Of a stretch of DNA of 64,000 nt, positions 16,510-57,184 are shown one piece after another. A program made the translations under genes and the position numbers. Origin of the DNA: Halorutilales archaeon Cl-col2-1 (GTDB lineage Archaea > Halobacteriota > Halobacteria > Halobacteriales > Afararchaeaceae); the NCBI GenBank assembly GCA_041891055.1, contig CP169074.1, positions 992,001 through 1,056,000 of the forward strand. Reading direction: 5' to 3'. The stretch's first letter is position 1; every line of letters begins with the position of its first letter. The notes under the pieces are model-generated. The model was not told the DNA's origin. It did no database searches and worked only from the letters and a program-made list of their open reading frames with translations.

Positions 16510-16510
16510 T

Positions 16511-21844: not shown

Positions 21845-21922
21845 TCATTGGTCTTCAACAAAGTATTTAAATGAATCGACATCGTGCAATTCATTAGACG
21901 AAAGAGAATACCTCTTAATCAG

Positions 21923-24747: not shown

Positions 24748-25209
24748 ATTAATTTTGAATTCAGTATCAGAGGACATGAAAATGTTGGTTCACTCATCGG
24801 CGTTCTAAGAAAAAAGATCAATCCCAAATACTCTCACATCTCCGAGGTCTAAGTGAGTACGAGTTTGAATTAACTATCATTGGGGACGGGGGACTTAAGC
24901 CGATCCTTAGACAAGAGTTTGAGAACCGGAATCTCTCTTCACACGTGAGTTTCAGAGGATTCGTGTCCAACGATCTACTCCCTGAAGTCTATGCGAGTCA
25001 TGACCTCTTTCTTTATCCGGGTATCTGGGACGAGCCGTTTGGCAGGGTCTTTATAGAGTCACTCGCAACAGGCACTCCCGTAGTCTCCACGGATATCGGT
25101 TCGACCGAAGAGATCTTAGGAGACGCTGGTGTTACGGTGGAGCCAGACGTCGACAGGTTAGCCGAGGCAGTTCACCTAATTGCGAGGCGGAGGCCACGTC
25201 CTCAAGGAG

Positions 25210-25310
25210 TCATTCGAGAATCGAAGATTCTCGTGATCGAGCGAATCAAGGATTTGCGAGTCTTCAGAAATCTTCGATTTCTGTGATGCAGAAAACTCTA
25301 AGAGTTTTCC
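25210..25310. repeat. Two tandem double-hairpin mini-elements (25210-25258, 25261-25310) with AG duplications
   Basis: [ag]unit[ag]unit[ag] inside the IS left-end hairpin. Confidence 0.8.
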
Positions 25311-25451: not shown

Positions 25452-26762
25452 ATGGAGGTCATTCGCACGGTCAAGGTCAAACTCGACGTGCCTGACCAGC
25501 GACGGGACGACCTTCATCAGACCGCCGACCAGTTCCGCTACTGCGCCAATCAGACCAGTGAGTGGGCGTGGCGCGACTCCTCGGACGAATACTGCGTCAC
25601 CAGCAAAGCGAAAGCCGAAGACGCTCTCTACGACCGTCTTCGAGACGAAACCGACCTCACCGCCAATCTCGTCCAGAAAGGGATTCGGCGGGCTATTGAG
25701 GCAGTCAAAAGCGGTGTCGAAGCGTGGAAACGAGGTGACCGCACCAGCCAACCACACTTCGATGCGTGGAGCATCGTTTATGACAAGCGAAGCGCCACCT
25801 TCCACCGCGACCGTGTGTCCCTCTCGACCGTGGATGGACGAGTCGAATGCGAGTACGTCCTACCCGACAACACGGAGGGGACGCCGATTGGTGACTACCT
25901 ACTGAACAAGAACTTCGAGTTCCGAATGTCCACGCTCCAGTACGACCGCTTCGAGGACGAGTTCTACCTCCACGCCCGCATGAGACACACCCCAGAAAAT
26001 GGCGAAGAAGAGCGTTCAAGTTCGGACACGCACAGTGAGAACCCGACGGTTCTCGGCGTGGACTTGAACGTTGACGGCTACTTCGCCGTCACCAGCACGG
26101 GTGCGTTCATCGAATCAGCGGACTACCTCAACCACCGTCGGCGTGAGTTCGAGCAGACCCGTGGAAGCCTCCAAGAGACAGGCACACGGTCGGCGCATCT
26201 GACCATCCAGCAGATGAGCGACCGCGAACACCGCTGGATACAGGACGTACTCCACTCGGTTGCGAACGACATTCTCCGCGAAGCTCGTCGGGTGGACGCG
26301 ACTCATATCGCGTTCGAGAACCTGACGGGTATCCGTGACCGCATGGTGAACGCCAAGCGATTCCACGCGTGGGCGTTCCGCCAACTCTACGAGTACGTCG
26401 AGTACAAAGGTGAAGCCGAAGGCGTGACTGTCGAACAAGTGAGTCCTGCGTACACGAGTCAGCGGTGTTCGAAGTGCGGATGTACGCTGGAGGAGAATCG
26501 CCCGTCGAAACACGAGTTCTGCTGTCAGAAGTGCGGGTACGAACTCAACGCCGACTACAACGCGAGCAAGAACATCGCTCGCAAACTCGCCAAGGGTCTC
26601 CGCTCGGGGCAAAAGTCTCCGAGTGGAGGAGCCACCTATCAACTGGCTCTAACGTCGGGGACGCTGAACCTGAACGGCGATTTCCACGCCTCCGACCGTG
26701 TGTCGGCAGAAGGGGAGTCCACCGACAAACCCCATCGTGAACGAAAGTTCACGAGCCTCTGA
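25452..26762 (+). CDS. tnpB: TnpB RNA-guided nuclease
   Basis: RuvC GVDLN / AFENL / NADYNA; zinc finger CSKC..CQKC. Confidence 0.95.
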   Translation: MEVIRTVKVKLDVPDQRRDDLHQTADQFRYCANQTSEWAWRDSSDEYCVTSKAKAEDALYDRLRDETDLTANLVQKGIRRAIEAVKSGVEAWKRGDRTSQPHFDAWSIVYDKRSATFHRDRVSLSTVDGRVECEYVLPDNTEGTPIGDYLLNKNFEFRMSTLQYDRFEDEFYLHARMRHTPENGEEERSSSDTHSENPTVLGVDLNVDGYFAVTSTGAFIESADYLNHRRREFEQTRGSLQETGTRSAHLTIQQMSDREHRWIQDVLHSVANDILREARRVDATHIAFENLTGIRDRMVNAKRFHAWAFRQLYEYVEYKGEAEGVTVEQVSPAYTSQRCSKCGCTLEENRPSKHEFCCQKCGYELNADYNASKNIARKLAKGLRSGQKSPSGGATYQLALTSGTLNLNGDFHASDRVSAEGESTDKPHRERKFTSL

Positions 26763-33613: not shown

Positions 33614-34540
33614 ATGCGAGTACTCGTTACGGGAGGCGCGGGTTTCATAGGATCGAACTTTGTTCATTATCTCCTGAAAGAGACAGAGGACACAGAGGTA
33701 GTCAGCTTAGATGCTCTGACTTACGCTGGTGACAAACAGAAGTTAGAGGGAGTATTAGACCATCCCAGACACGAATTTGTAGAAGGAGATATACGTGACA
33801 GAGAGTTGATTGATGATCTAATAGAAGACGTCGACGCAGTCGTCAATTTCGCGGCTGAGTCCCACGTCGACAGATCGATAGATACTGCAGAGCCGTTTGT
33901 CTCTACCAATGTACAGGGAGTCCAGACACTACTCGATGCCGCGAGAAACACCGAATTAGACGCATTCATACAGATATCTACTGACGAGGTATACGGTGAG
34001 ATCACCGAAGGTAAGTTTGATGAAGAAGATGAACTCAATCCCAGAAACCCCTACGCAGCGACCAAAGCGAGTGCAGATCTTCTCGCTGAGAGTTATTATA
34101 TAACCCACGACGTACCTGTTATCATTACGAGATCAATAAACAACTTCGGACCGAGACAGAACGAGGAGAAGCTGATACCCAAGTTCATAACTAAAGCCTC
34201 GAAAGGAGAGAGTCTACCTCTGTATGGAGACGGTACAAACGTGAGAGAGTGGCTCTATGTCGAAGACAACTGTAGCGCGATAGAAACTGTTCTGAGAAAA
34301 GGAGAAGTTGGAGAGGTATACAATATCGGTGGCGGTGAAGAACTCCAGAACAGAGAAGTTACAGAAAGGCTACTTGACGAAGTCGGTGCATCCGAAGATC
34401 TCATAGAGTACGTCGAGGATCGCAAAGGACACGACCAGCGTTATGCTCTGGATTCGTCTAAAATATACGAGTTAGGCTGGGAGCCACAGTGGTCATTTGA
34501 AGAAGGTCTGAAAGAGACTGTAGAGTATTGTTTGAAATAG
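33614..34540 (+). CDS. rmlB: dTDP-glucose 4,6-dehydratase
   Basis: AAESHVDRS, STDEVYG, GHDQRY. Confidence 0.96.
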   Translation: MRVLVTGGAGFIGSNFVHYLLKETEDTEVVSLDALTYAGDKQKLEGVLDHPRHEFVEGDIRDRELIDDLIEDVDAVVNFAAESHVDRSIDTAEPFVSTNVQGVQTLLDAARNTELDAFIQISTDEVYGEITEGKFDEEDELNPRNPYAATKASADLLAESYYITHDVPVIITRSINNFGPRQNEEKLIPKFITKASKGESLPLYGDGTNVREWLYVEDNCSAIETVLRKGEVGEVYNIGGGEELQNREVTERLLDEVGASEDLIEYVEDRKGHDQRYALDSSKIYELGWEPQWSFEEGLKETVEYCLK

Positions 34541-34659
34541 AGTCACTCGCAACAGGCACTCCCGTAGTCTCCACGGATATCGGTTCGACCGAAGAGATCT
34601 TAGGAGACTCTGGTGTTACGGTAGAGCCAGACGTCGACAGGTTAGGCGAGGCAGTTCAC
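34537..34659 (+). repeat. 123-bp direct repeat of 25053-25175 (GT4 fragment)
   Basis: 3 mismatches over 123 bp. Confidence 0.95.
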
Positions 34660-34834
34660 TCGGCAATGAAAGATCACTCATCTTAGATATTGACGACCAG
34701 TAATTGAACCTTCGATACAATAACAAGATTAGAATTCAGGCTACATAGGTAGAGATCTCCCGCCTTATAAATACGAATTCAGTTTTTTCTAGAGATTCCG
34801 AGACCAAGTCTGTCTCAAATCACATCCTACAGAA

Positions 34835-40964: not shown

Positions 40965-41102
40965 TACTTCACGGGATTGTTTGGCTATCACTTAGTAGTT
41001 TTCTTGACTGATCTCTCCTCTGTTCTACTGGACCGGTTCACAAGTTAAACAAGAACAGCTAAGTGATTGTTGTTTGCAATATTGGTAATAAAGATCCAGC
41101 AT

Positions 41103-42118
41103 ATGGCAGAGAAAATCCTCGATAGAATATTCCAACGCCCTTTTCATTCCCTCAAAAAAGCACCTTCCCTTCTCTGGAGCCGTTCTCTCAGACATAACGT
41201 CGCGAGGCAACTCAACAAGACCTGGCATACGAAAAACGGACGTCACGAGTACAATCCGGAAGGGGTCGACATTTTCGAAGAGGACTGGGATAACCTCGTC
41301 ATTCTCGACGCCTGTCGGTTTGATTTCTTTGCGAAAGCCTACCGGGAGCACGACCTTCCTGGAAAGTTGGAGTCACGAATCTCTCGAGGGTCACAGACTC
41401 CCGAGTGGCTGTGGGCAAATTTCGCTGATAGAACGCTACACGACACAGTCTACATTTCAGCTAGCTTTATGCCGTATCATATCGGTATTGAGAGATTTGA
41501 CGATCCGACTCCATTCCAGGAAAGATACTCATTTGATTTAGATGTATTTGATCTCGTAAGACTTAGAGAGGATTTAGCCGACGAAGTGCTGGAAACCTAT
41601 GATGAGCGCCTGACAAATACTGTTCTTCCAGCAGAAGCAACTGTCAATGGAGCCATCGAAGCTGCAAAAGAATATCCCAACAAGCGACTCATAATCCATA
41701 TTATCCAACCGCATAAACCGTATCTCGGTTCGGTAAGCAGATTCATCAGCAGTCATCTCACCCGTGGCGAGATACATATTTGGGTAAACAGTCGTTTTCG
41801 CAAGAAACGATGACCGAGGCGTATTGGGAAAATGTCGATAGAGCCGTCTCAGCGACGAAAGAGCTCATTCCAGAATTAGAAGGAAAAACCGTTGTTTCAG
41901 CGGATCACGGTGAATTGCTGCACGACCGCTCGTCTCCGATTCCAATCATGGAATACATGCATCCAGATAGAACATATGTGTCAGAGCTCGTGAAAGTACC
42001 ATGGCTGGTGATTGACTCTGATGACCGGAAATCAATTCAGTCGGAGTCGCCCACAGAACTCCCTCAATCCGATGAATCCATATCACAGGATCAGTTGGAA
42101 GCACTTGGATATCTTTAA
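41103..42118 (+). pseudogene. Sulfatase-like paralog of 21923, frameshifted near 41750-41790
   Basis: LDACRFD..QPHKPY in ORF1; SADHGE..LVKVPW..LEALGYL in ORF2. Confidence 0.8.
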
Positions 42119-45670: not shown

Positions 45671-45756
45671 ATGGTCAGAAGCGCGGTAATACGAGTCAGA
45701 ATTCAGAAGATGGCCGGATGTTAGGGCATCCGACCGCGCTTCACGCCAGGTGAAGC
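45671..45756 (+). promoter_or_regulatory. Structured leader with overlapping hairpins and a 17-codon uORF
   Basis: gaagcgcggt/accgcgcttc, cggatg/catccg and gcttcac/gtgaagc; TATA-like ctttaag about 25 nt upstream. Confidence 0.55.
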
Positions 45757-45758
45757 AA

Positions 45759-46169
45759 ATGTACGATACCCACGAGACTCAGAAAAACGTATCGTTATTA
45801 GAGCAACTACTACACGGACTCCGCGTTGGAGTAGGAGAGTCACGTAACGAGTTCGCCGTATGCGATAGCTGTGGCATACGTCTACGTGAAGGCTCAGAGG
45901 TCACTGTATACGCATACTCCAGAGCCGACGACAGTAGCTGGCATACGAGAGGTGTCTACTGCCGTAACTGTGAGAAGACTCAGATAGAGACATCCACTAA
46001 GAACAACGAAGAAGCCGTCGCACAGTCACACATAGCTCTTCTTCAGGATGCCAAGTACCAGACTGCCTCGCTGGTAGTAGTCGACCCCGAAGTACTCGAT
46101 TACAGCAGCGAGAAAGAAGGCGTCGAGTCTCAGACAGTCGCGGTGACCGAGAAAGGAGGGGGTCGCTAA
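45759..46169 (+). CDS. Zn-finger hypothetical of haloarchaeal plasmid type
   Basis: CDSC..CRNC pairs. Confidence 0.75.
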   Translation: MYDTHETQKNVSLLEQLLHGLRVGVGESRNEFAVCDSCGIRLREGSEVTVYAYSRADDSSWHTRGVYCRNCEKTQIETSTKNNEEAVAQSHIALLQDAKYQTASLVVVDPEVLDYSSEKEGVESQTVAVTEKGGGR

Positions 46170-46269
46170 ACAGCTATGTCTCAGACCACCCAACCGACTT
46201 TAGCCGTGTCAACGGTCTGAGACACTGTTGTCCCCCATTCGGTCTACACAGAAAGCAGAAAGAGACAGA

Positions 46270-47298
46270 ATGTCTACTACGAGACTCGATAAAGACATCC
46301 TAACCCCGAGGATAGATCTGAGTCTCTCCGAGCTAACACGCAGGGAGTTTCACGAGAGATTCTGGAGTCAGAACTTCGGTCTTCTACGAACGGCGGTAAA
46401 GAGGATAGTCGAAGACCTCGGACTCACGACCTGGAGTGAACTGCCGTCGTATATCTGGCGCAACGGAGTCGACGAGATGAACCGCGAGTACGCAGTCGAC
46501 ATGGTAGCCTTCGAGTTCGAGAAAGAGACCTCGGTAGAGAGACTCAAAAACCTCACTCTAGCACTCGGATCAGGTAAGAGGATCAGCCCGGTCGACGAAG
46601 AGCTATACGGCACATACAACACCACCAAAGACGACGTCTTCGCTCCCTTCAAGATCCTCGATATAGCCGGCATACGTCCCAAAGTCGGTATAGACGCCGA
46701 CTCCAGAGCGGTGGGTGGGATCGATACAGAGTTTTTTGATAAACTGAGTGAATATGTCGACTTAGAGATAGAGGTCAGCCTTGGAGACACAGACGAGCCT
46801 ACCCAACTACCGGAGTATGTCCATATAGATTTAGATACAGGGCACTCGAAGAGAGACAAGTACGGATACTGGTATAAAAGACAAGATCTCCACAAAGCCG
46901 TAGAGACCCCAGACAGAGCTCTGAGAGTTCTCAAAGAGATTGCTGGAGACCTACAGACTAAGAGCAACCACACCAAGTACACCTACGACGAACTACAGAA
47001 GATAACTGATCTCGACAGGAGTACTCTGATAACCTATACGAGGCTCTTAGAGGCGAATAGTCTCATAGATAGGTCTCGGGACGAAAGACGTGTAAAAATC
47101 TCTCTGACCGACGTAGGTGTAGCTTTCGTGAGTTTAGTCATGGATGTCGACATAGAGAAGACAGCCAGATTCAGATCCTCTCTTTCAGGTTTCTTCGTAG
47201 AAGATCTTCTCCCGGAGGCAGGATCCAGTAAGACCGATACCAGCAGTAGAAAACAGAGAAAGCCTCCTCCAAAGACAAAGAAAAGTAAGGTAATCTAG
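46270..47298 (+). CDS. wHTH protein resembling the N-terminal part of haloarchaeal plasmid Rep (RepH-like)
   Basis: TYDELQKITDLDRSTLITYTRLLEANSLI wHTH; the Rep assignment rests on recalled similarity and context only. Confidence 0.5.
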   Translation: MSTTRLDKDILTPRIDLSLSELTRREFHERFWSQNFGLLRTAVKRIVEDLGLTTWSELPSYIWRNGVDEMNREYAVDMVAFEFEKETSVERLKNLTLALGSGKRISPVDEELYGTYNTTKDDVFAPFKILDIAGIRPKVGIDADSRAVGGIDTEFFDKLSEYVDLEIEVSLGDTDEPTQLPEYVHIDLDTGHSKRDKYGYWYKRQDLHKAVETPDRALRVLKEIAGDLQTKSNHTKYTYDELQKITDLDRSTLITYTRLLEANSLIDRSRDERRVKISLTDVGVAFVSLVMDVDIEKTARFRSSLSGFFVEDLLPEAGSSKTDTSSRKQRKPPPKTKKSKVI

Positions 47299-47491
47299 CC
47301 TTACACCGACGCCTTACGGCAGTTTGTTAGCTTTCGTCTCGTTAGAGTCATCTCCGAGAAACTCTCGGCTCACTCTCCCACGGAGTCTTCGTCTTCTTGC
47401 GATTTTGGTGAAAGTAACCTAGACCGACCTTTTCTGAGAACAACGTCGAGAACCATACCAAAAATCAATCCTCAGCTCATTCTACGGATCC

Positions 47492-47777
47492 TCTGAGAAG
47501 GTCTTCTATAGAGTCTCTACCTAACTCCATTTGTCTGTTCTCAAGAAAAATCAAAGACATCGTGTACATAATGCCATACGTGGTGCTATTCTCCTCTCCA
47601 CGAGACCTACAGATAGAATTCTATTTCTTCTTTAGATGTCGTTACCCCCGTAGGCAGTCTATACCGTCCAAGGTTTATTCTGTCCAATTAGCTAACCAAC
47701 ATTCTCTAGACAGTTTTCAGATATGTTGGTTAGCTCTTTAGCATGGCCTATACATAACCCATCCGAGGTAGTTTGGA
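47492..47777 (+). repeat. Long non-coding repeat, copy 1
   Basis: Aligns with 53905-54184; contains core taggcagtctataccgtccaagg and hairpin agctaaccaacat..atgttggttagct. Confidence 0.92.
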
Positions 47778-47840
47778 CAGATTCTGCAACTAAAACAGAG
47801 AGGAGATCAGTTTGCTCAAGCTCGTCCACAGTCTCCTCGG

Positions 47841-48350
47841 TTAATCGACAAGGTGATTGATAAATTCACGTCCTTCTACGACAGTGATACTTTTTGTTCT
47901 AGAGGTAAGCACGTCTCTGATAGCACGTTCAGCCACTCTATCACTAACAAGTACTGCTACATGATCCGATATGCGGCTGTACTGATACGCTAAGCCAGCA
48001 AGAACCGTGTCAGTTTTTTCGATTTCGTCTTGCGAAACATCGTCAGACGAAATATTAGCCATTCTGTCTCTCGTATCATCCACGACGTTTGAGACGCCTG
48101 AAACACCAAAATCGGTTTCTGCAGAGTCGAGCCACCCGGATTCACTCGCAGCACGTAGACGGTTGCGTTGATACTCGTATTCATCAGGACTCTCTCCTAA
48201 CTCTTCAGCAACTCTTTCGGGCATCTTGACATTGATGTTTTTTCTCTCGAAGTATCTCTCGAAAGCCTGATACTTCTCATTCTCCGGCCCTCCTATCGCA
48301 AAAAGTACGCTACTATCAACTATAACAGTAGATCCAGAGGGTATATTCAT
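47841..48350 (-). CDS. PIN-domain toxin
   Basis: IVDSSVL, EEL, TDTVL, VSD acidic tetrad. Confidence 0.82.
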   Translation of the reverse strand: MNIPSGSTVIVDSSVLFAIGGPENEKYQAFERYFERKNINVKMPERVAEELGESPDEYEYQRNRLRAASESGWLDSAETDFGVSGVSNVVDDTRDRMANISSDDVSQDEIEKTDTVLAGLAYQYSRISDHVAVLVSDRVAERAIRDVLTSRTKSITVVEGREFINHLVD

Positions 48351-48889
48351 CGATTTCGGTGGTCTTGAATAACGTCTTGTAATGCAGTTATCACTGTCAT
48401 AGCTTCTGTGGGATGAACATCGAGTTTTTCAGCGGCAGTACGCTGAGTCAGTTCTTCATCTATAACTCGACGTGTGTAATGTAGAGCAGATGCGAGTTTC
48501 GAGACTCCGTTTCTTTCTACAAAGACTCGTATATCTTCGCTTTCAGACTGTCTCCCAACGGCATCGATAAGTTCCGGTGTAGCTGTAACAGTTCCGTTCG
48601 GGGTTTCGACGTTGATCTCAAGGGTCTCTACCTCCATCTTTGCAGGCTTCTGGTCTTCTTGTCGGGTAAGTATCTGTTTTTCTTCGAGTTCGGATATATA
48701 TTTGTAGGTAGTGGAGTGAGGTAAGCCGAGACCATCCTTTATAGATTCAACTTCGACGGGTTGATTCTTGTATATGTAGGTATACAGGCGTGCAAGCTGT
48801 TGGTTGTTGAGAAGCTCTGAAATGGCGAGGATATTATCGATGGTCTCCTCTGGGTCAGGTTCGTTAGAGGCTGTGTTTTCTACTGACAT
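48347..48889 (-). CDS. HTH antitoxin/regulator
   Basis: LGLPHSTTYKYISELEE; ATGA overlap with the PIN gene. Confidence 0.82.
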   Translation of the reverse strand: MSVENTASNEPDPEETIDNILAISELLNNQQLARLYTYIYKNQPVEVESIKDGLGLPHSTTYKYISELEEKQILTRQEDQKPAKMEVETLEINVETPNGTVTATPELIDAVGRQSESEDIRVFVERNGVSKLASALHYTRRVIDEELTQRTAAEKLDVHPTEAMTVITALQDVIQDHRNR

Positions 48890-48908
48890 CTGCTACATAA
48901 TACATGTA

Positions 48909-49097
48909 CTATGTATTAATCTCTTGTGAAAAGAAAAACAGATGCATATTCACTTCTGATCTCCAGTACTCAAAGCAACTATCCCATCCTACTTTATGTA
49001 AATTCTGAGTGATCCGAGACCAGAGGCTCGTGTTAGCTACAGCAATCATGGCATCTGTATCGACTATAACAGGATGTCGCGAACCATCACCTACCAT
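48909..49097 (-). pseudogene. Truncated PIN toxin
   Basis: VIVDTDAMIAVANTSLW matches paralog 49572, then homology is lost after about 30 aa. Confidence 0.8.
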
Positions 49098-49106
49098 TCT
49101 CCAGTC

Positions 49107-49415
49107 TTACTCCTGAAGTACATCGCTAGTATCGAGATCCATGGCTTTCTCAAACTCTTCAGTTTCTCGTTTAATCTCGTCTAGAGCATCACCAAGAAGG
49201 ACTTGTGCAGCCTCTTTCGAGATCTCACCTTGTTCGTACTTTTGATGAATACTGATCTTTTCTTCGTCAGACAGGGTTTCCTGAAGCTTCTCTTGGAGTC
49301 CTTCTCGAGCAAGTTCACTGATATTTATGCCTCCAAGGCGCATCTGATCGAGAAGATGTGATGCTTCTTTTTCAGCCTCCCCCCGAAACTGGATCTTATC
49401 GTTGTTCGTTGCCAT
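49107..49415 (-). CDS. Antitoxin (RHH-like), paralog of 50142
   Basis: KIQFR..GGINISELAREGL. Confidence 0.78.
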   Translation of the reverse strand: MATNNDKIQFRGEAEKEASHLLDQMRLGGINISELAREGLQEKLQETLSDEEKISIHQKYEQGEISKEAAQVLLGDALDEIKRETEEFEKAMDLDTSDVLQE

Positions 49416-49497
49416 CCTACTCAGATATTCACTCGCCTCCAATATATGTGTTGTGACCAGTAATCCATGTCATGACAAATGGTTCTTCTGAAAGTAC

Positions 49498-49550
49498 TCT
49501 ATCTCTTCTCTAGATGTCGTTACCACCGTAGGCAGTCTATACCGTTCAAG
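49498..49550 (+). repeat. Partial copy of the non-coding repeat
   Basis: tagatgtcgttaccaccgtaggcagtctataccgttcaag. Confidence 0.9.
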
Positions 49551-49571
49551 ATGTCTAACCTAGAAGATACA

Positions 49572-50141
49572 TCAAGCAAAATACTCAGAGTCGACAAAAC
49601 CGGAGCAATCGACGGGTATACCTTCCCATACAACTATGATGGACTTGTATCCGGTCCAACCCTCACTTTCGACCATCTCCTGTGTAGCCTCACAGAACTC
49701 TTTCTTACTAATTATACCGTTGTCGTATAGAATATATATCGGAAAAGCAGGTGACGAAATACTGACTTCGTAGCCTTCTCTGTGTGCAGTATTCTCTATA
49801 CGCTCTCTACCAGCTTGATCCCGTATGAAAACTGCGTCGAAGTGACTCCCGTTCTGAGCTATCTGTATTCGTATCGACTCCTCTCCTGCGTCCTCGCCGC
49901 TCGGTTTCGGCACGGTGTTGACTAGATCTATACTCCCCTCCTCAATCCCGGATAATGCGTGGAGACTAGCTTCATAGATATGGTCGTCTCTATCACTCTT
50001 CTCGGTGTGGTTCTGTAGCTCTGACTTACACGTGTAGGTGGTAGTCAGTCCAACTTTAGTAAATGTCTTCTCCCACAGACTCGTGTTACCTATAGCGATC
50101 AAAGCATCAGTATCGATCAGAAGTCGAGAACAGTCCATCAT
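49572..50141 (-). CDS. PIN-domain toxin
   Basis: LIDTDAL, SEL, DAGEESI, RD. Confidence 0.8.
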   Translation of the reverse strand: MMDCSRLLIDTDALIAIGNTSLWEKTFTKVGLTTTYTCKSELQNHTEKSDRDDHIYEASLHALSGIEEGSIDLVNTVPKPSGEDAGEESIRIQIAQNGSHFDAVFIRDQAGRERIENTAHREGYEVSISSPAFPIYILYDNGIISKKEFCEATQEMVESEGWTGYKSIIVVWEGIPVDCSGFVDSEYFA

Positions 50142-50453
50142 TTACTCGGCAAGATACTTCTCGGTACCTTCATCTGCTAACTCTCTTGTGTTCTCTATCG
50201 TCTTCTGTATCTGATCGAAGTCTTCTCCAAGCGCTATTCGGACAACCTTCTCAGATACATCGCCTCTCCTATACATCTCGTAGAACTCAATTTTCTCCTC
50301 GTCGGAGAGTATATCGGGTAAGAGACGTCTCATCGCTTCTCTGCTTACTTCACTTTCGTTAACTCCTCCGACACGTATCTCATCCAGCTTCTCTAACAAC
50401 TTCTTGATAGCGTCCGACCGAAACTTAACCGTATCAGTATCTGACTGACCCAT
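50142..50453 (-). CDS. Antitoxin (RHH-like)
   Basis: TVKFR..GGVNESEVSREAM; abuts the PIN gene. Confidence 0.78.
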   Translation of the reverse strand: MGQSDTDTVKFRSDAIKKLLEKLDEIRVGGVNESEVSREAMRRLLPDILSDEEKIEFYEMYRRGDVSEKVVRIALGEDFDQIQKTIENTRELADEGTEKYLAE

Positions 50454-50589
50454 ACTCTGATTACCAGTGTCTTAGAGAAAAAGTTTGTGTCACAGGTAAC
50501 ATTGTAGCCACAGAAAGAGACCTACTGATTTTTAGGTGCGAATAAAGGTCATAGGGAGAGTCTGCCCACTTCTCTCGGCAATACTAACT

Positions 50590-50639
50590 CCGTAGGCAGT
50601 CTATACCGTCCAAGGTTTGTTCTGTCCTATTATAGCTAA
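50590..50639 (+). repeat. Partial copy of the non-coding repeat
   Basis: ccgtaggcagtctataccgtccaaggtttgttctgtcc. Confidence 0.9.
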
Positions 50640-50916
50640 AACATACTATTCGTGAGCTTAGGCACACGTTCTCTAAGCTCATCAAGGCAGAGCTCTAAGA
50701 CAGCCATCGGGTTGGGATCGCTAAACGATGCTGCCTCTCTGTGAGAGGAGTCCCAGTCTCTGTGATCGACCTGAAAATGACTCGACCCTAGATCCTCGTG
50801 GCTTTGGTCTTGATGCCAGCCACAAGACCAGTCAGATCCTCGTTGGTTGTACTGTATGCGAAACTCGTCTCTGTCCTCTCGTGGTCTCCACTCTATTTCG
50901 AGTTGTGCTTCTACTC

Positions 50917-52458
50917 GTAAACTACTCCACCCTACTTCGCTCGGGCAAACCCTCGCTCGTGGAGGGATGGGGCTTTGACGTGGACTTCCGTTCTATGGCT
51001 ATGTAACCAACGGAGAGGCCTGTCTCCCCGGTCGAAGGGGCGTCAGTACTTACACGTTCACGGTCATCGTCCCGCCATTTAGCGCAACGTTTACGGGTGC
51101 GCCTCCGCCGCCCCCAGTCTGGTTGCGACGGAGTAGCCGCCGACAACACCGCACCGCCACGTTCTTTGCTGCGTTGTAGTCGGCGTGATTCTCGTAGCCA
51201 CACTTCTGGCACTCGAACTGTTCTTGCGTGGGGCGGTTGTCTTCGTGGGTGAATCCACAACTGCTACACCGCTGTGAGGTGTAGTAGGCTGACACCGTCT
51301 TAGCCTGTGGACTCCGCTCCAACTCCTCAACATCGATTCCGTAGGCCTTCGCTTTGTACTCGACGTAGTTATACAGGCGGTTAAACCGCCAGCGGTGGTG
51401 CCACGTTGCCCCCTGCGCCCGTTTCCGGATGTCGGTCAAGTCCTCGAAGGCGATCACCGAACAGTCGTATTCGACCGCTTCGTCGACAATTTCGTTGGCA
51501 ACGATATGGAGATACTGCTTGTAGTACGCACGTTCTTTTTCTCCGACATGTTGTAGAGTGCGGTGGGCTTCCTGTGTACCACGTTCTTGAAGTGATCTAC
51601 GTCGCTTCTCGAACTCACGGTGCCAGTGGTCGAGTTCGTCGCCCGTCCAGAACGTGCCGGTTGATGCGACAGCAAGGTTCTCGACGCCGAGGTCGATCCC
51701 GAGGACTGTGTTGTGCTCGGGGACATCAGCGTCAGTTTCTGTGTCGTCTTCAGTGCGTTTGAAGCCGATGTGGAGCCAGAACTTGTCTTCGAACGGCTTG
51801 TAGTGGAGTGTGCTGGTGCGGAACTCCCAGTCGTCGTTTTCGAGGTATTCTTCGAAAGGAGTGTCTGCTGTGTCGTTTGGGAGTACGTAGTCTGCTTCGA
51901 TACGTCCATCCACGGTGGACAGCGAGATATGGTCATCATGGAAGGTAGCGGCTCGTTTGTCGAAACGAGCCGTGTCAGCGGTAAACTCGGGTTGGCTGGT
52001 TTTTTCGTTCTTTTCGAGACGTTCGACACCAGCTTTGACGGCTTCAACGGCTTGGAAGATAGCTTGCTGGACGAGGTTCGCCGTGAGGTCGTACTCTGAT
52101 TTCAGGTCGTGGTAGAGCTCGTCTTTTACGGCATACTTCGCTGTTTTCTTGTAGTCGTCTTCGTCCCAGCAGTGGTCGCTAGTTTCGTTAGCGCAATGTT
52201 TGTACTGGTCGATAGTGTCGAGAAGTGCGTCCTTGTCGTTGTCGTCCACGACGAGTTTAACCGGTAGCGTCCGACGCACTTCCATACTGGTTTCAACGTA
52301 TTCTATCTATTTAAATTCTTTAGGAGTGGGGGAGTTAACCGAGTACAGAGAACAGATATCGAGGAGGTATTTGACGCGCTCCTCCCCTCCCTACTGTGCT
52401 GCTTGAGAGCCTGGGCTCTCTGCGCTGCTCGTTGAGGAAGGGGGCTCCGCGCTATCTT
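50917..52458 (-). mobile_element. IS200/IS605-family tnpB-only element
   Basis: Subterminal hairpins; right end gtagtttac; removal restores ..SSA-R-VEAQ.. Confidence 0.85.
51050..52285 (-). CDS. tnpB: TnpB RNA-guided nuclease
   Basis: GIDLG / AFEDL / HADYNA; CSSC..CQKC. Confidence 0.95.
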   Translation of the reverse strand: MEVRRTLPVKLVVDDNDKDALLDTIDQYKHCANETSDHCWDEDDYKKTAKYAVKDELYHDLKSEYDLTANLVQQAIFQAVEAVKAGVERLEKNEKTSQPEFTADTARFDKRAATFHDDHISLSTVDGRIEADYVLPNDTADTPFEEYLENDDWEFRTSTLHYKPFEDKFWLHIGFKRTEDDTETDADVPEHNTVLGIDLGVENLAVASTGTFWTGDELDHWHREFEKRRRSLQERGTQEAHRTLQHVGEKERAYYKQYLHIVANEIVDEAVEYDCSVIAFEDLTDIRKRAQGATWHHRWRFNRLYNYVEYKAKAYGIDVEELERSPQAKTVSAYYTSQRCSSCGFTHEDNRPTQEQFECQKCGYENHADYNAAKNVAVRCCRRLLRRNQTGGGGGAPVNVALNGGTMTVNV

Positions 52459-52676
52459 GTGCTGAAGACTCCTTTGAGTATGGCTCGGAGAAAAAGACCC
52501 CCCTTATCGAGAGTAGCTTTAACCCGAATAGGTCTCATAGGGCTGGGCTCTGCTTCGACGTTTTTGATCCCTTCGGTTCTTTCAAGACGGTTTCGAAACC
52601 GTTTGTGAATCTCGTACCTACTGAGATGAGAGCTTGCTTCGACAGGAGAGGTCATAGAACTCTTGGCACCAGTATT

Positions 52677-53183
52677 TCAGACAGAGACTTTCTCGTCTTT
52701 TGTCTTTTCTACAGAAGTATACATGCTGACAGCATGTTTTATCATCTCGGCTCGTTGGCGGTAATACTCCCAGTCCTCCGCGAGTCTTCTTCGTTCTCTT
52801 GCTTCTTCACCGGAGAGGTCTTGGTCACCTATAGAAGCTCGGAGTTCGTCGGGAGAAGAAACTCCATAACTGTCTCGCCATTCATCTATGTCTTCTCGGA
52901 TCGAGACAAGCTCATCAGTTAGCTCTTGTTTACTGTATTCTTCTATCAGTTCACGGACTTGATCAAAGTACTGAGTGACAGGATCAGGTCGATATAGAGT
53001 CTCACGTCCATTCTGTATCTCCGAGATCTTGTTTAGTTCGACTATATGCTGTAGATACTTCTCAGCAGTATTTCGTGCTACACCTGCCATTTCAGCTATC
53101 TCTCCTGCATTGCGGGGTTCACGAACTGTCATAGCCACCTCCTCTATCCTCTCAAACTTATCCTCGTGGTCAGCCTGGGTCAT
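52677..53183 (-). CDS. wHTH + coiled-coil antitoxin/regulator (third paralog)
   Basis: AGEIAEMAGVARNTAEKYL. Confidence 0.8.
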   Translation of the reverse strand: MTQADHEDKFERIEEVAMTVREPRNAGEIAEMAGVARNTAEKYLQHIVELNKISEIQNGRETLYRPDPVTQYFDQVRELIEEYSKQELTDELVSIREDIDEWRDSYGVSSPDELRASIGDQDLSGEEARERRRLAEDWEYYRQRAEMIKHAVSMYTSVEKTKDEKVSV

Positions 53184-53201
53184 ATACTCACTACGTAGCC
53201 C

Positions 53202-53327
53202 TTATTTTAATATCTTACTACAGGATTCATTATGCTGATCTTGTGCACGTTGAGTATCATATCCATTGGATCGAAGAGCGTTAACCACTGCACCTGGGAC
53301 GTGTTCGTCAACTACGATGTCGAACAT
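53202..53327 (-). pseudogene. Truncated DUF5615-like PIN toxin
   Basis: MFDIVVDEHVPGAVVNALRSNGYD followed by an early stop. Confidence 0.75.
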
Positions 53328-53603
53328 CTACTTTTCAGCTTTTTCAGGGGCATTTGACATCTTGATCAGCTCCTCCTCTAGCTCTCTGTGTCTCTCACGT
53401 ATCTTCTCCATCTCATCAGGATGTCGGTAGTAATACGCTAGGGCTTCGTGTACTTCATCGAGTCCTAACTCGAGCTGATCGGCTACATATTCTGGGGACT
53501 CACCGTTTTTAATAACCATATCAGCTATCTGTATCACCGAGACACGTCTACCCTCAAGACGTGGCTCACCTCCGAGTGTGTCTTCAGTCTTTACAACTGT
53601 CAT
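53328..53603 (-). CDS. DUF433 antitoxin
   Basis: LGGEPRLEGRRVSV..VHEALAYY. Confidence 0.9.
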   Translation of the reverse strand: MTVVKTEDTLGGEPRLEGRRVSVIQIADMVIKNGESPEYVADQLELGLDEVHEALAYYYRHPDEMEKIRERHRELEEELIKMSNAPEKAEK

Positions 53604-53824
53604 TCTACCACCATCCACACGAGAGAGTTACCGACTAGCTTGCTCTTCACACGTCCGTCTTCTTCGATCTTTCGAAGACGATAGTCGGCGTTTTGACGTG
53701 AGCATCCCACAGTATCTCCTATCTCTTTCGTAGATGCAGGCTCATTCTCACGTATAGCATCTATAAACTCATTGTCGGCAAATGACGGTTCAAATTCACC
53801 GGTCGAAGATCTTTGTCGCCCCAT
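53600..53824 (-). CDS. Small wHTH protein
   Basis: STKEIGDTVGCSRQNADYRL. Confidence 0.8.
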   Translation of the reverse strand: MGRQRSSTGEFEPSFADNEFIDAIRENEPASTKEIGDTVGCSRQNADYRLRKIEEDGRVKSKLVGNSLVWMVVE

Positions 53825-53904
53825 TATACCACTAATAGATCATCCATCCACTTAATCATTATCTCCATAGCAAAAGATACCAGCAAGATAAAGCTAAGAA
53901 CAAT

Positions 53905-54184
53905 TCTGAGAAAGTCTTGTCTAGAGTCTCTACCCAACTCTATTTCTTCATCCTCAAGAAACTCGCAGACATCGTGTACATAATGCCGTACGTGGTGCTA
54001 TTCTTCTCTCCACGAGAGTTACAGATAGAATTCTATCTCTTCTCTAGGATAGGCAGTCTATACCGTCCAAGGTTTGTTCTGTCCCATTAGCTAACCAACA
54101 TTCTCTAGAGAATTTTCGAAAGTGTTGGTTAGCTCCCCGAACACACTCTATACAAACCAATTTGTGCATCCGAGATAGTTTGGA
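53905..54184 (+). repeat. Long non-coding repeat, copy 2
   Basis: Aligns with 47492-47777. Confidence 0.92.
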
Positions 54185-54331
54185 TATCTCTTATACTCCA
54201 AAGTAGGTGGTGAATTAGGTCAGGTGACCCAGTTCACTAGTGAGAACATGATTCATACCTCCATGTGTCACATATAAATAGAAGTCACTTTATTAATAAA
54301 CTATTTAAGTAATAGTAACGTTAAGCGTAAT

Positions 54332-55033
54332 ATGAAACGTGGTGTGAAAGAAGAACATGATAAAAGCGGTATATCGATCTCTCTCCCGGTGCCTTCTCTC
54401 GACTCTGATCTGTTCAAACACAAAGCTACTAATAACGTACTTCTATTTCTATCACATCACAGACAGGACGAGTTTACTATATCTGAGATAGCTTCTCAGA
54501 CAGGGCATACTCAGCCATCAGTAAAGAGATCGGTAGACGTTCTAGAGAAAAACGATCTAGTCATAGATAATCCTCAGGGCAACAGACGTCTGATACGAAT
54601 AAACCGTGAACGGCTTTCTGTGCCAGATGATCCCTATCTTCAGATACCTCAGATACAGTTTCAGAAACCCGTAAAAGAAGCTGTCGAACAACTGAAGAAA
54701 GGTCTCAAAGATGTTGAAGCTGTAGTCCTATATGGGAGTGTAGCTCGGGGAGAAGCAGATAGCCGGAGTGACATCGACCTATGGATCCTCGTTACTGAAG
54801 ACAGAGCTAAAAACCAAAGAAAAGCTAACAAAATAAAATTAGACCTCGAAGAAAAAAGATTTGACGGCGATAGGTATAGCTATGACATCGATGTCGAGTC
54901 TATTTCTGCTATACCTAGATACACAGAAGACCTACGACAGATAGTCGTCTCCGGGATCCCAGTCTATCAGACAGAGAAGTTCAAAACTGTCGAAAAGATC
55001 CTAATGGAGGATCTGGAGGGAGAAGATGACTGA
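54332..55033 (+). CDS. HTH-fused minimal nucleotidyltransferase (MNT antitoxin)
   Basis: LYGSVARGEADSRSDIDL. Confidence 0.9.
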   Translation: MKRGVKEEHDKSGISISLPVPSLDSDLFKHKATNNVLLFLSHHRQDEFTISEIASQTGHTQPSVKRSVDVLEKNDLVIDNPQGNRRLIRINRERLSVPDDPYLQIPQIQFQKPVKEAVEQLKKGLKDVEAVVLYGSVARGEADSRSDIDLWILVTEDRAKNQRKANKIKLDLEEKRFDGDRYSYDIDVESISAIPRYTEDLRQIVVSGIPVYQTEKFKTVEKILMEDLEGEDD

Positions 55034-55225
55034 TCCCAGCTCTATCGTGGATGCTATCGGCCGTGCAGAAGACGCATTCGAAGAGAGAGCCGGAGGAGTG
55101 CCAAAGTACGAAGAAGGTATTGCCTCGGGCGGGGGCTGGGAGACACAGATGAGTTAGCTGAAGAAGTCCATAGCTTCGTCGTCGATCAGATCAGAGAAGG
55201 TGGTGTATGTATCTGTAGTTTGTGA
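55026..55225 (+). pseudogene. HEPN-like partner with a large internal deletion
   Basis: MTDPSSIVDAIGRAEDAF..WETQ joined out of frame to ELAEEVHSFVVDQI..CICSL*. Confidence 0.7.
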
Positions 55226-55270
55226 TGGTATCGGATACAATACAAAAGCCATTCTCCGAGAGTCTGATCA

Positions 55271-55317
55271 TAGCTAACCAACATTCTCTAGAGGATTTTC
55301 GAAAATGTTGGTTAACT
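55271..55317 (+). repeat. Hairpin-only copy of the non-coding repeat
   Basis: tagctaaccaacattctctagaggattttcgaaaatgttggttaact. Confidence 0.9.
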
Positions 55318-55342
55318 ATTTCTTGAGCTTTCTTGCCTCGGA

Positions 55343-55750
55343 CTACGCCGTAACAGGTATATCGACGCTAATACTGTCGTACCAGACTGTGGGCTTCTTT
55401 CTCCTGCCTTCTTCTTCAAGCTCTATTAACCCGAGTTTCTCTAGCTCGGTAACACTATCATGTACTTGGCGTACGTCTCGATCTACTCGACGTGCGAGGT
55501 CACGTATACTCTCGACGTTTTCTCGGGCTATGGTTCGTATGAGTTCTAGATTTCTGTCGTCGAAAATCTCGTTAACTCGCTCTTCTGTCTCGAGTGTCAG
55601 ACCGTAGCTCTCTTCGGGCTCTTCGCCCTCATCGATTGCTTTCATAGCCTCGGCGACGGGGTCTTGGTGTCGAGTCGCGCTAACTCCGGCTACTTTGACG
55701 TGTAAGACTTTCTTTCCGTCGGGGTTCTTGGTGTCGGCTTCTATCGCCAT
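55343..55750 (-). CDS. HVO_A0114-like HTH antitoxin
   Basis: SIRDLARRVDRDVRQVHDSVTELEKLGLI..KPTVWYD. Confidence 0.85.
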   Translation of the reverse strand: MAIEADTKNPDGKKVLHVKVAGVSATRHQDPVAEAMKAIDEGEEPEESYGLTLETEERVNEIFDDRNLELIRTIARENVESIRDLARRVDRDVRQVHDSVTELEKLGLIELEEEGRRKKPTVWYDSISVDIPVTA

Positions 55751-56038
55751 AATGTATCAACTCCTTCGTTTTTCTTGACGTATTCTCTGAAACGTTCGTA
55801 TGCCTCGAAGTACTCGATATCGACATCCACCGGATTTTCTTCACCTTCGTGCTTCTCGAAGACTCCATGGCTGTTATCGTATCGAAGCAGTGTTTCACCG
55901 TTCTGAGTCCCGTAGTGTAACCGTATTTTTGTATCCGTCAGGATACTTTTCGGATTCGGGCACTTCAAGTATCACGGCACGAACTACCGTATCTTCGAAC
56001 TCCCGGGTCTCATCAACGACGCGTTCGATATCCGACAT
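55741..56038 (-). pseudogene. DUF6516/TumE-like toxin with a +1 frameshift in an A5 run
   Basis: MSDIERV..VPESEKYPDGYK | RLHYG..RYDNSHG; span 298 nt = 3n+1. Confidence 0.8.
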
Positions 56039-56043
56039 CTACT

Positions 56044-56068
56044 ACATTGTTGTTAAATCCTACAACAA
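56044..56068. promoter_or_regulatory. Palindromic operator upstream of the DUF6516 operon
   Basis: attgttgt-taaatcct-acaacaat. Confidence 0.55.
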
Positions 56069-56237
56069 TAAAACGTTGTGGGGTCTTAACAACAGTCCTC
56101 CATTCTCATCTCTGAAAAACGTAGCTGGGAGAGTAACTCGTATGTTCAGCATTCGAGAAACTGGTTCGAGTCTCGGGATTGACGACGCATTACCACAAAA
56201 CTACGATAGCTGATAGTCAGGGTTCAGTCACTCCTCA

Positions 56238-56804
56238 CTAATTATCGAGATACTCCTGCCGTAGATGCTCGATGTACTGCGGATCCCAAGATTTAGTTTC
56301 GACGTAGTAGGTAAGCGCAGAGTCAACATACTCCGCGGGCAGAATCTCGTGTGTCGCTAACGCACAGAGTAGATGCGGTGTTGTAAACAGTGTGTTTCGG
56401 TCGTCGAGTGCGAGGTTAACGAAGAGATAGTTGGTACTGTTGAACTCATCTGTGACAAAAAGATCTGCCTCTAACTCGTTTGCCAGCCAGATGCTCTCAG
56501 ACTCTCCACGATCGAGACCGTAGTCGAGATCCACGTCGTTGAAGTCGTCGGTATCGTGTGTCGTCAGATGGTGGGATGCCTGGAGCACGAGGTCAGCGGC
56601 TGCGGACAATAGGTCGTCGTTCTCCGTCGCTTCGGCGACCTCGCCCAAGACAGCCGCAGGTATATGGATATCGTATACGTTGAGGAGAGCCTTGAGTGGA
56701 TCAGCACCCGAAGGAGACCGCGAACGCCCGTCAACGACAGGTGTAGCGACGTTTAACAGAACATTTGTGTCGACAACAGCAATCGCCTTCTCCGGCATCG
56801 TCAT
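56238..56804 (-). CDS. PIN-domain toxin
   Basis: VVDTNVL, GEV, DRGESESI, VTDE. Confidence 0.85.
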   Translation of the reverse strand: MTMPEKAIAVVDTNVLLNVATPVVDGRSRSPSGADPLKALLNVYDIHIPAAVLGEVAEATENDDLLSAAADLVLQASHHLTTHDTDDFNDVDLDYGLDRGESESIWLANELEADLFVTDEFNSTNYLFVNLALDDRNTLFTTPHLLCALATHEILPAEYVDSALTYYVETKSWDPQYIEHLRQEYLDN

Positions 56805-57184
56805 CTCTGTGATCCACTGTCCGACTCAGACTGCGTCCACTCTGGGACATCGCCGTCATAGAAGGCATCGTCAGTCGGGAGACTGTCCTCAAGCCGGGGT
56901 TCAGGAGGAGCCCTGTCGATCGACTCACGGAGGAGTTTCATCCGGAGTGCTTCTTCACGTCCGAGTATCTCTTCGACTGTGTCATACTCGACACGGTCGT
57001 TATAGTATGCGTCGCTGAGACGTCGGCGAAACTCCTTGTCATCTGCGAGCTCTTCGAGTTCGTCTTCTAGTGCATCGATAAGGAGACGGGTGCGGGATAT
57101 ATCGAGGACTTCAACGACGCTGTCGGCACGCTCAACTAGAGATTTCGGGGCATTAAAATCGACACGGGTTTTCTCCTCAGCCAT
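56801..57184 (-). CDS. RHH antitoxin
   Basis: RVDFNAPKSLVERAD..SRTRLLIDAL. Confidence 0.8.
   Translation of the reverse strand: MAEEKTRVDFNAPKSLVERADSVVEVLDISRTRLLIDALEDELEELADDKEFRRRLSDAYYNDRVEYDTVEEILGREEALRMKLLRESIDRAPPEPRLEDSLPTDDAFYDGDVPEWTQSESDSGSQR

Follow-up and report, generated by a model that had tools for sequence, protein, structure and literature searches.

The 64-kb window analysed here (64,000 nucleotides of contig CP169074.1, positions 992,001 to 1,056,000, from assembly GCA_041891055.1 of Halorutilales archaeon Cl-col2-1) is haloarchaeal chromosome, and it carries an array in which a non-coding repeat of ~310 nt recurs among small operons of toxin–antitoxin (TA) type. The five copies of the repeat, all on the + strand, lie within 7.8 kb (47.5–55.3 kb); two of them are full (c1 and c4) and three are fragments (c2, c3 and c5). 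The cargo amounts to eight TA-like operons, which are small and mostly composed of two genes, and to a TnpB insertion sequence (IS) by which one of them is split. We read the array as the remains of related mobile or plasmid-like DNAs that were serially inserted into one low-GC island, a tentative interpretation to which we assign a probability of about 0.4. All verdicts given below concern this one locus in this one 64-kb window.

The copies were recovered by repeat finding, by MAFFT alignment and with an nhmmer profile of 329 positions built from c1 and c4. The first full copy, c1, occupies positions 47482–47800 (profile 3–329; nhmmer), while the second, c4, is found by nhmmer at 53894–54202 (profile 2–324), flanked by the starts of two divergent genes (minus strand, 53824; plus strand, 54332). 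Among the fragments, c2 consists of the left arm and the core of the repeat (49486–49554, profile 129–197; nhmmer), c3 spans 50567–50647 (profile 146–226; nhmmer) with high identity only over the core and spacer at 50590–50632, and c5 is the hairpin alone (55271–55319, profile 210–258), located between the convergent ends of a nucleotidyltransferase gene and of module E (see below). With all filters off, nhmmer yielded no further match above the inclusion threshold in the 64 kb, except reverse-strand self-matches of the hairpin. The 22-nt core has four matches at three mismatches or fewer (47651, 49529 with one mismatch, 50593 and 54050), against none in 100 shuffles, and the first 22 nt of the hairpin have three (47689, 54088 and 55271), again against none in 100 shuffles. 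A previous reading of the sequence alone (hereafter the sequence-only reading) had already reported five same-strand copies, the core at these four positions and a hairpin recurring three times. All three observations hold, the copies being recovered by three methods in agreement and their earlier coordinates being right to within ~10–15 nt at the ends.

Four of the five copies (c1, c2, c3 and c5) each lie 3–50 nt beyond the stop codon of a minus-strand module. The similarity of c2 stops directly after the core, 17–21 nt ahead of the stop codon of a PIN_13 gene, and c5 ends 24 nt from the module E stop codon at 55343. At the right end of c3, a degenerate remnant of the 5' hairpin arm contains the stop codon of the upstream gene (50636–50638), which sits 3 nt past the well-conserved block of this copy. 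The stops that the sequence-only reading had placed beside four copies (47841, 49572, 50636 and 55343) are thus correctly positioned, with the precision that the one at 50636 belongs to the gene split by the IS.

A full copy is made of a left part of ~165 nt, a core, a 16-nt spacer, a 46-nt hairpin and a right part of 60–66 nt, the left part including a palindrome centred on GAATTC and a weak hairpin with G-U pairs. The core is 25 nt long (CCG followed by the 22-mer) at 47648–47672 in c1, as well as at 49526–49550 (one mismatch) and 50590–50614, and is represented by the 22-mer without CCG at 54050–54071 in c4, always on the + strand. The hairpin is found at 47690–47735 (c1), 54089–54134 (c4) and 55272–55317 (c5); in c1, it has a perfect 13-bp stem (AGCTAACCAACAT / ATGTTGGTTAGCT) and a variable loop of 20 nt. 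When folded as single-stranded DNA, it measures 46–47 nt and shows a perfect stem of 12–13 bp, free of bulges on either strand. Its z-score against shuffles is −2.85 for the + strand of c5 and lies between −4.4 and −5.5 for the five other combinations of strand and copy. The core region folds no better than shuffles (z 0.47).

The two full copies are not evenly conserved. Between c1 and c4, identity reaches 86% in the left part, 100% in the core (22/22), 87.5% in the spacer, 100% in the 5' arm of the hairpin (14/14), 75% in its loop, 92% in its 3' arm (12/13) and 62% in the right part. Since conservation varies so much from one segment to the next, the core and the hairpin arms are either under constraint or kept alike by gene conversion, with the remainder drifting. 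Directly 5' of the 22-mer core, 15 nt of c1 are replaced by 2 nt in c4 (a net shortening of 13 nt), and the core and the 16-nt spacer are free of indels across c1, c3 and c4. As a side observation, the RNAalifold consensus of 47492–47795 and 53905–54192 on the minus strand features a long-range 5-bp helix around the hairpin, core and palindrome, in which two adjacent double compensatory changes occur (AGGCC/GGTCT in c1, AGAGT/ACTCT in c4); with n = 2 sequences, we regard it as a lead.

The sequence-only reading had described the repeat as non-coding while listing a decayed reading frame as the alternative. The description is upheld and the alternative fails on three counts: stop codons occur in all six frames of both c1 and c4, no open frame is common to the copies, which are separated by indels of 13 nt and 1 nt, and the only long frame, of 107 codons on the + strand through c1, has no protein match at E ≤ 0.01 among 5.8 billion clusters (proteins of 58–188 aa searched; three word candidates) and no Pfam family. 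A known RNA was rejected as well, with no Rfam match at the gathering score in the window nor at E ≤ 1 in the 47–56 kb region, and with rows at chance level alone for c1 and c4 at E ≤ 10. No tRNA genes were found. Beyond the window, the core 20-mer has no exact match in a collection of one genome per species (185,579 species); the same scan did not find the window itself either and is hence uninformative on the source genome. By blastn, c1 has no match in plasmid or phage records, and a repeat profile run with nhmmer finds nothing in six TnpB loci from other genomes. Finally, no paper describing such a repeat was listed in a literature search on haloarchaeal TA islands and direct repeats.

One argument for serial insertion comes from the places where the fragments end. 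In register with c1, identity drops from 9–10/10 to background within a single 10-nt step on either side of c3 and c5 and on the right side of c2, whereas c2 loses its similarity more slowly on the left. The end points coincide with the edges of the best-conserved elements of the repeat: c2 breaks off at the core, the conserved block of c3 begins there and the 15-nt/2-nt replacement of c4 abuts it, whereas the right end of c3 and the left end of c5 fall at the 5' foot of the hairpin and the right end of c5 at its 3' foot. The chance of at least three of eight end points lying within 3 nt of the hairpin feet is ~0.004 (binomial), the feet being set by the structure. An extension of c3 through a collapsed hairpin is weak (matched by 6 of 500 shuffles against c1 and by 83 of 500 against c4).

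The arrangement of c2 and c3 is particularly suggestive. The former is composed of the left arm, the core and then unrelated DNA, the latter of unrelated DNA, the core and then the right arm, so that the 25-nt core is their only common part. Between its direct copies, they enclose exactly one complete operon, module B, of ~1.0 kb. It is plausible that this represents an attL/attR-like picture of an insertion into the core of one earlier copy, by analogy with the attachment (att) sites flanking integrated elements. Moreover, c2, c3 and c5 follow each other on the chromosome in the order that they occupy along the repeat, with overlapping ends (129–197, 146–226 and 210–258), which is how a single ancestral copy should look after being split first at the core and later at the hairpin foot. 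A role of the repeat in the joining of DNA, that is, in some form of recombination, is therefore plausible. The claim of the sequence-only reading that the repeat is a recombination site is to this extent sustained, by the abrupt ends at the edges of conserved sub-elements and the direct cores around the PIN_13 module, but weakened by the lack of a recombinase in the window and by four distinct junction positions.

In the scenario that we favour, related mobile or plasmid-like DNAs would have been inserted successively, most of each being deleted later. Besides the fragment ends, this scenario draws on the confinement of the repeat to one strand and 7.8 kb, the uneven conservation of c1 and c4, the self-contained TA-type cargo, the multi-copy gene pair ahead of c1, the low GC content and the arrival in the array of an IS of a type shared with other genera. 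The survivors would be self-maintaining TA-type operons and parts of a conserved non-coding segment of the element backbone, seen today as the ~310-nt repeat. DNA would have been joined at the 25-nt core and at the foot of the 13-bp hairpin, which would act as attachment-like sites for a recombinase encoded outside the window, rather than as a promoter-driven integron platform. Three components are inferred, namely site-specific recombination as the origin of the joins, the membership of the gene pair to the left of the array in the same element family, and deletion as the cause of the trimming. A bolder version, which we hold to be rather improbable, sees here an undescribed halobacterial cassette-capture platform, in which self-promoted TA operons of ~1 kb are inserted and excised at the asymmetric 25-nt core and at the hairpin foot of a ~310-nt landing-pad repeat by a recombinase encoded elsewhere in the genome; it would be functionally analogous to integrons or pdif modules, with an unrelated site architecture.

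Several observations weigh against serial insertion. In the 137 open reading frames (ORFs) or frames of the window (33 + 39 + 65), there is no tyrosine (Phage_integrase), serine or HUH recombinase domain, nor any other recombinase domain. Most core sites of tyrosine recombinases are dyad-symmetric, and the best dyad of the core, at 8/11 in the surrounding 46 nt, is equalled in 160 of 2000 shuffles. The junctions between repeat and modules fall at four profile positions (~197, 216, 258 and 329), hence no single crossover point fits them all. Furthermore, c4 adjoins no minus-strand module end, and modules D and F have no repeat downstream. No second genome with the repeat emerged from the species-genome, plasmid and phage searches. 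There is no sign of recent movement of the modules either, because, out of ten array proteins looked up, three were not in the collection with the start used and five of the other seven were singletons at 90% identity. Finally, the attL/attR argument is partly circular, since it is the overlap of c2 and c3 that defines the core, and similar end points could arise if purifying selection kept two functional sub-elements while the remainder was deleted.

The cargo modules are all on the minus strand, save for one gene. Module A (47841–48889) encodes a winged helix-turn-helix (wHTH) protein of TrmB type with DUF7437 (48347–48889; DUF7437 at E 3.4e-25), followed by a PIN_halo protein of 169 aa (47841–48350; PIN_halo clusters, score 0.95, template modelling (TM) score 0.85), the two genes overlapping by 4 nt. 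Module B (49572–50453) combines an antitoxin-like gene of 103 aa (50142–50453) with a PIN_13 protein of 189 aa (49572–50141; PIN_13 clusters, score 0.94, TM 0.86). Beside it, module B' (48909–49442) has an antitoxin-like gene of 111 aa (49107–49442) and a stump of 62 aa corresponding to a PIN N-terminus (48909–49097). The 111-aa protein is 35% identical over 100 aa to the 103-aa protein of module B and the stump, over 49 aa, is 41% identical to the N-terminal part of the PIN_13 protein; by these similarities, B' is an old tandem paralogue of B. Module E (55343–55968) consists of a TumE-family toxin (55741–55968, E 1.5e-5) and a wHTH protein of the HVO_A0114 family (55343–55750, E 1e-28). At the right end of the array, module F (56238–57184) encodes proteins of 127 aa (56801–57184) and 188 aa (56238–56804), the latter with a weak PIN similarity (E 0.021, below the family cut-off) and a match to PDC-S70 in PADLOC (E 5.7e-8); its single-sequence structure model was not used, owing to a predicted local distance difference test (pLDDT) value of 40.3.

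In module C, the 5' part (52463–53183) comprises a DUF7342 wHTH gene (52677–53183, E 1.2e-46) and the 5' piece of a partner gene that extends to the TTCA at 52463–52466, while the 3' piece of the partner gene lies on the other side of the IS, at 50636–50916, and is 28% identical to the 149-aa protein encoded at 10321–10770 (tblastn E 0.008, with a subject of 2.4 kb). The association of a DUF7342 wHTH protein with a partner of 149–167 aa is present three times in the window (10321–11344, 12140–13166, and 52463–53183 with 50636–50916), the partner genes of the two other copies being at 10321–10770 and 12140–12643. These modules are mutually 28–34% identical and the partner motif R(W/Y)D..H..H.H is conserved; the partner family has no match in Pfam, NCBIfam or PADLOC, and the idea of a TumE-like partner was discarded, the motif resemblance being not significant (E 24 and 5.4). 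Module D (53328–53824) encodes a small HTH_20 protein (53600–53824) and a DUF433 protein (53328–53618). The last module, on the + strand (54332–55033), is a solo gene in which a MarR-type HTH is fused to a minimal nucleotidyltransferase (MNT, MntA-like), and no HEPN partner was found in the 237 nt downstream of it. A related MAG contig carries a twin of the MNT protein with at least 90% identity.

A predicted toxin fold, accompanied by a small DNA-binding partner in a two-gene operon, is recognisable in modules A, B and E. A toxin-type assignment thus appears warranted for A, B, B' (through its stump) and E, and is weak for F. No toxin was identified by Pfam, NCBIfam or PADLOC in module D or in the solo MNT gene, and for these two, as for C, the TA label is a guess. 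Sequence searches of the PDB with the three PIN-type proteins returned zero, zero and one row, the latter at chance level. The count of eight modules in the sequence-only reading is reproducible, but a toxin-type assignment can be given to five of them only, and in one of these the evidence is weak. To the eye, a TATA-like motif lies 25–35 nt upstream of the first gene of each module, and the modules therefore look like self-contained, self-promoted operons, not promoterless cassettes.

The IS that splits module C (50917–52462, minus strand) is a TnpB-only element of the IS200/IS605 family (IS1341-like), whose tnpB gene (51050–52285, 411 aa) encodes an OrfB_IS605 domain and a Cas12f1-like TNB domain. 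Its ends were fixed against five copies in other genera (79–83% nucleotide identity over ~1.6 kb), namely two in Halorientalis persicus and one each in a Salinarchaeum metagenome-assembled genome (MAG), in Halapricum hydrolyticum and in a Halobacteriales MAG. The insertion point lies 3' of a TTCA, the element terminates on the right in GTAGTTTAC, and, upon its removal, both pieces of the partner gene are in one frame (by eye). A Halorutilales plasmid also has an annotated TnpB at least 90% identical to that of the array, and these similarities point to a recent spread of this IS between genera. Further left in the window, within the glycosylation island described below, sits a second TnpB element (25452–26762, right end near 26976) with 49% amino acid identity to the first, and its right end (...GGGTGGGGTAGTTGA) is close to that of the first element (...GGGTGGAGTAGTTTAC). 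Neither element matched an omega-RNA-type family in Rfam.

Attempts to relate the repeat to these elements gave nothing. A link through GTAGTTT, a 7-mer near both right ends, was rejected given its 10 occurrences in the window against 7.1 expected. In 12 comparisons of the repeat with the right ends of both TnpB elements and the left end of the array IS, 37 to 200 of 200 shuffles were as good. One comparison scored better, that of the + strands of c1 and c4 with sequence taken arbitrarily from upstream of the second tnpB (equalled by 2 and 7 of 200 shuffles, respectively); it was likewise dismissed as apparent chance, since the part aligned in c1 is not the one aligned in c4.

To the left of the array, a lineage-specific pair of + strand genes (45750–47298), encoding proteins of 136 aa (45750–46169) and 342 aa (about 46270–47298), ends 184 nt before c1. 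Both genes have 81% paralogues on a contig of the same length as that of the window, taken to be the same chromosome, with locus tags four steps apart, and the 342-aa gene has further copies on a 116-kb plasmid (76%) and in a MAG (84%). The family of the latter is nearly exclusive to the lineage, with three representatives among 1.84 billion proteins in a full HMMER search and four relatives in a word-indexed search. Judging from these relatives, the 342-aa gene is a multi-copy, plasmid-linked gene. Its protein has no Pfam, NCBIfam or PADLOC family and, by tblastn, no match in the plasmid and phage collections, and its AlphaFold model was not used (mean pLDDT 42.6). Nothing in these results shows the protein to be a replicase or a recombinase, and this reading was set aside. 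The sequence-only reading had the modules accreting downstream of a decayed plasmid replicon. One half of this proposal stands, in that a multi-copy, plasmid-linked neighbour pair fits a decayed mobile or plasmid-like element, and the other half is not supported, for nothing marks the 342-aa protein as a replicase.

The rest of the window provides the setting. From 1 to 43 kb extends a cell-surface glycosylation island (AglB/STT3-type protein, glycosyltransferases, sugar-nucleotide enzymes, sulfatases), which is separated from the repeat region by an ABC-transporter gene (43.4–45.2 kb). To the right of the array come the gene of eIF-1A (57.3–57.7 kb) and those of a cold-shock protein, a pilin, VapBC, a PAPS-reductase-domain protein, an amidohydrolase and a MutS-like protein. 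The GC content of the array is 0.41–0.53, against 0.60 in the housekeeping genes to its right. Because the type species of Halorutilales, with a genome of 2.1 Mb, has 59.8% G+C (PMC10134839), which matches the right flank, we consider the array as low-GC island DNA. Going by the type species, the genomes of this order are streamlined (PMC10134839).

The glycosylation island shows some oddities of its own. Two ATPase_2/DUF234 genes (7337–8791 and 15115–16527) are 44% identical to each other, and between or near them are found a MazF/PemK toxin (16634–17005), a VapB-like ORF (11518–11760) and a UPF0175 ORF (11910–12101), so that this island too holds scattered TA-type genes, there without the repeat. 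Two fragments of glycosyltransferase genes (24945–25286 and 34501–34686) share a 41-aa stretch that is 95% identical between both sites, one of which adjoins the second TnpB element; this suggests an IS-associated rearrangement. Finally, two consecutive ORFs of 248 and 112 aa (41067–42118) match the front and the back of a 321-aa protein (21884–22849) at 46% and 43% identity, respectively, and look like a frameshifted or split paralogue of it.

The sequence-only reading had called the array integron-like. The attC sites of integrons are imperfect palindromes of ~55–140 nt, with R''/L'' and L'/R' boxes, an unpaired central spacer and extrahelical bases. A cluster of attC sites lacking integron-integrases (CALIN) is by definition devoid of intI, so that the absence of an integrase alone, which we confirm for the window (0 of 137 ORFs or frames), is not decisive. 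If the system were truly of integron type, the hairpin would be an attC-like site folded from a single strand, and the cassettes would be captured by an IntI-type integrase whose gene lies beyond the window. Read by eye, the 7 outermost nt of each arm (AGCTAAC and GTTAGCT) do match the attC boxes RYYYAAC and GTTRRRY at 6/7 each, three fragment ends lie at the hairpin foot, and a TA-rich cargo is usual in sedentary chromosomal integrons. Integrase-less attC clusters are, moreover, described as common in a survey of archaeal integrons (PMC9668308). Yet the hairpin, at 46–47 nt, is shorter than an attC site and its stem is perfect, without unpaired central spacer or extrahelical bases, which our folding bears out as the sequence-only reading had it. 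It is present in three of the five copies and follows two of the eight modules only, the best-conserved element at the junctions being instead the non-palindromic core. The modules are two-gene operons with promoters apparently of their own, and the junctions do not fall at one fixed point of the site but at four profile positions. As for the spacing, the survey retains as a cluster at least two attCs less than 4 kb apart (PMC9668308), whereas successive hairpins are here separated by 6.4 kb and 1.2 kb. In the main text of the survey, the string "Halobacter" has no occurrence (PMC9668308). With no recombinase in the window, no attC hallmarks, a hairpin missing from two of the five copies and four junction positions, the integron label is abandoned, and an actual integron-type system strikes us as very improbable.

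Three further explanations were weighed. The repeat might be a small non-autonomous element, either a miniature inverted-repeat transposable element (MITE) or a palindrome-associated transposable element (PATE), that landed several times in an insertion-tolerant island and left decaying fragments, without any part in module gain. In favour of this, c1 and c4 begin and end alike and are of a size usual for MITEs, the region evidently tolerates transposons, as witnessed by the TnpB IS, and a strong sub-terminal hairpin is typical of IS200/IS605-family ends. At the same time, c1 and c4 have neither terminal inverted repeats nor a target-site duplication (by eye, their flanks differ), no significant similarity to the ends of the resident TnpB elements survives inspection, the five copies are clustered on one strand, in 7.8 kb out of the 64 kb, and the fragments have sharp, colinear ends where random ones would be anticipated; on balance, we judge such an element unlikely. 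Uneven conservation, which indicates constraint, and a core and 16-nt spacer kept without indels in c1, c3 and c4 would be accommodated if core and hairpin were cis-acting expression signals travelling with the modules. One version is a portable promoter, with the TCTATA of the core ~26 nt upstream of the hairpin start on the + strand, yielding RNA antisense to the 3' ends of the minus-strand toxin genes and also the leader of the MNT gene; the other is a 3'-end or terminator element. The left part does have a + strand hairpin with three G-U pairs, followed by a U-rich tail, and four of the five copies stand beside the 3' end of a convergent toxin-type gene. Nevertheless, a promoter needs ~12–14 conserved bases and not 22–25, the motifs were assigned by eye, the repeat has no Rfam match even at E up to 10, covariation is negligible, with compensatory changes in none of 64 (+ strand) and 2 of 68 (− strand) predicted pairs (in two sequences only), c5 is without the core and c2 without the hairpin, and the recurrence of the same sequence beside unrelated modules is left unexplained. 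We are accordingly doubtful of both versions taken together. Lastly, unequal or illegitimate recombination within the island might have duplicated one non-coding stretch two or three times, the copies now decaying without function. The tandem paralogy of B and B' and the limited resemblance of the full copies (86% in the left part and 62% in the right part) fit such a history, as does the deletion expected in a streamlined host order, going by the genome description of its type species (PMC10134839). It is difficult to reconcile, however, with B and B' being 35–41% identical as proteins when the adjoining core is 96–100% identical as DNA, with a core and arms conserved at 92–100% beside a loop at 75% and a right part at 62%, and with flanks of c1 and c4 that share nothing outside the repeat, so that we regard segmental duplication as improbable.

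If the core or the hairpin proves a genuine joining site, in line with serial insertion, the array offers a first look at the shuffling of TA and defence operons into archaeal islands without a linked integrase, as well as a compact, testable substrate, in the form of a site of 25 nt and a circle of 1 kb. Should it be mere insertion debris, it still makes a tidy case of TA operons and short backbone pieces outlasting decayed mobile elements in a streamlined genome. Under either outcome, integrons are not extended to Halobacteria.

How does the array compare with known systems? In sedentary chromosomal integrons, such as the super-integron of Vibrio, near-identical attC repeats (VCR, for Vibrio cholerae repeats) alternate with cassettes that include TA genes. 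The array resembles them by its same-orientation layout, by repeats that are similar within the array, by a TA-rich cargo and by a hairpin-forming element. It differs in that neither integrase, nor attI, nor common promoter is seen here, in that the hairpin is too short and too perfect, and in that the repeat is long (~310 nt) and mostly non-palindromic, with fragments of differing extent, several junction positions and modules that are two-gene operons; its host, moreover, belongs to Halobacteria. A second comparison is with elements that depend on Xer/dif, i.e., integrative mobile elements exploiting Xer (IMEX) and the pdif modules known from plasmids of Acinetobacter, which include TA-carrying examples. 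The likeness lies in small discrete modules including TA pairs, in a site of ~25–28 nt and in a host recombinase encoded elsewhere, which is here a proposal. The architecture of dif is 11-6-11 (PMC8371274); unlike it, the core has no such dyad above chance, the sites are direct and not inverted, and they are embedded in a longer, hairpin-bearing repeat. An actual Xer/dif-type site, with two inverted arms of 11 nt and a 6-nt spacer, was rejected on the 160 of 2000 shuffles already mentioned.

With the MITEs and palindrome-associated elements derived from IS200/IS605, the repeat has in common its size, its non-coding nature, a sub-terminal hairpin, the lack of terminal inverted repeats and the presence of TnpB in the window; it departs from them in that no significant similarity to the ends of the resident TnpB elements stands inspection, and by the clustering of its copies within the window. 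Archaea also provide a precedent for serial insertion: as reported in a review (PMC8371274), mobile elements may integrate in tandem at one chromosomal att site, leaving direct att repeats, and the integrase may be lost later. Known att sites of this kind are mostly in tRNA genes, and no tRNA or known RNA gene is found here. Remnants of tRNA-gene-type att sites were discarded as an explanation, there being no tRNA or Rfam RNA and, at variance with such remnants, no common end to the partial copies (129–197, 146–226 and 210–258). The bracketed unit is also smaller, at ~1 kb, and contains a single TA operon. What the array does share with tandem integration in archaea are direct repeats that bracket foreign segments, unrelated segments lying side by side and a location in a low-GC island.

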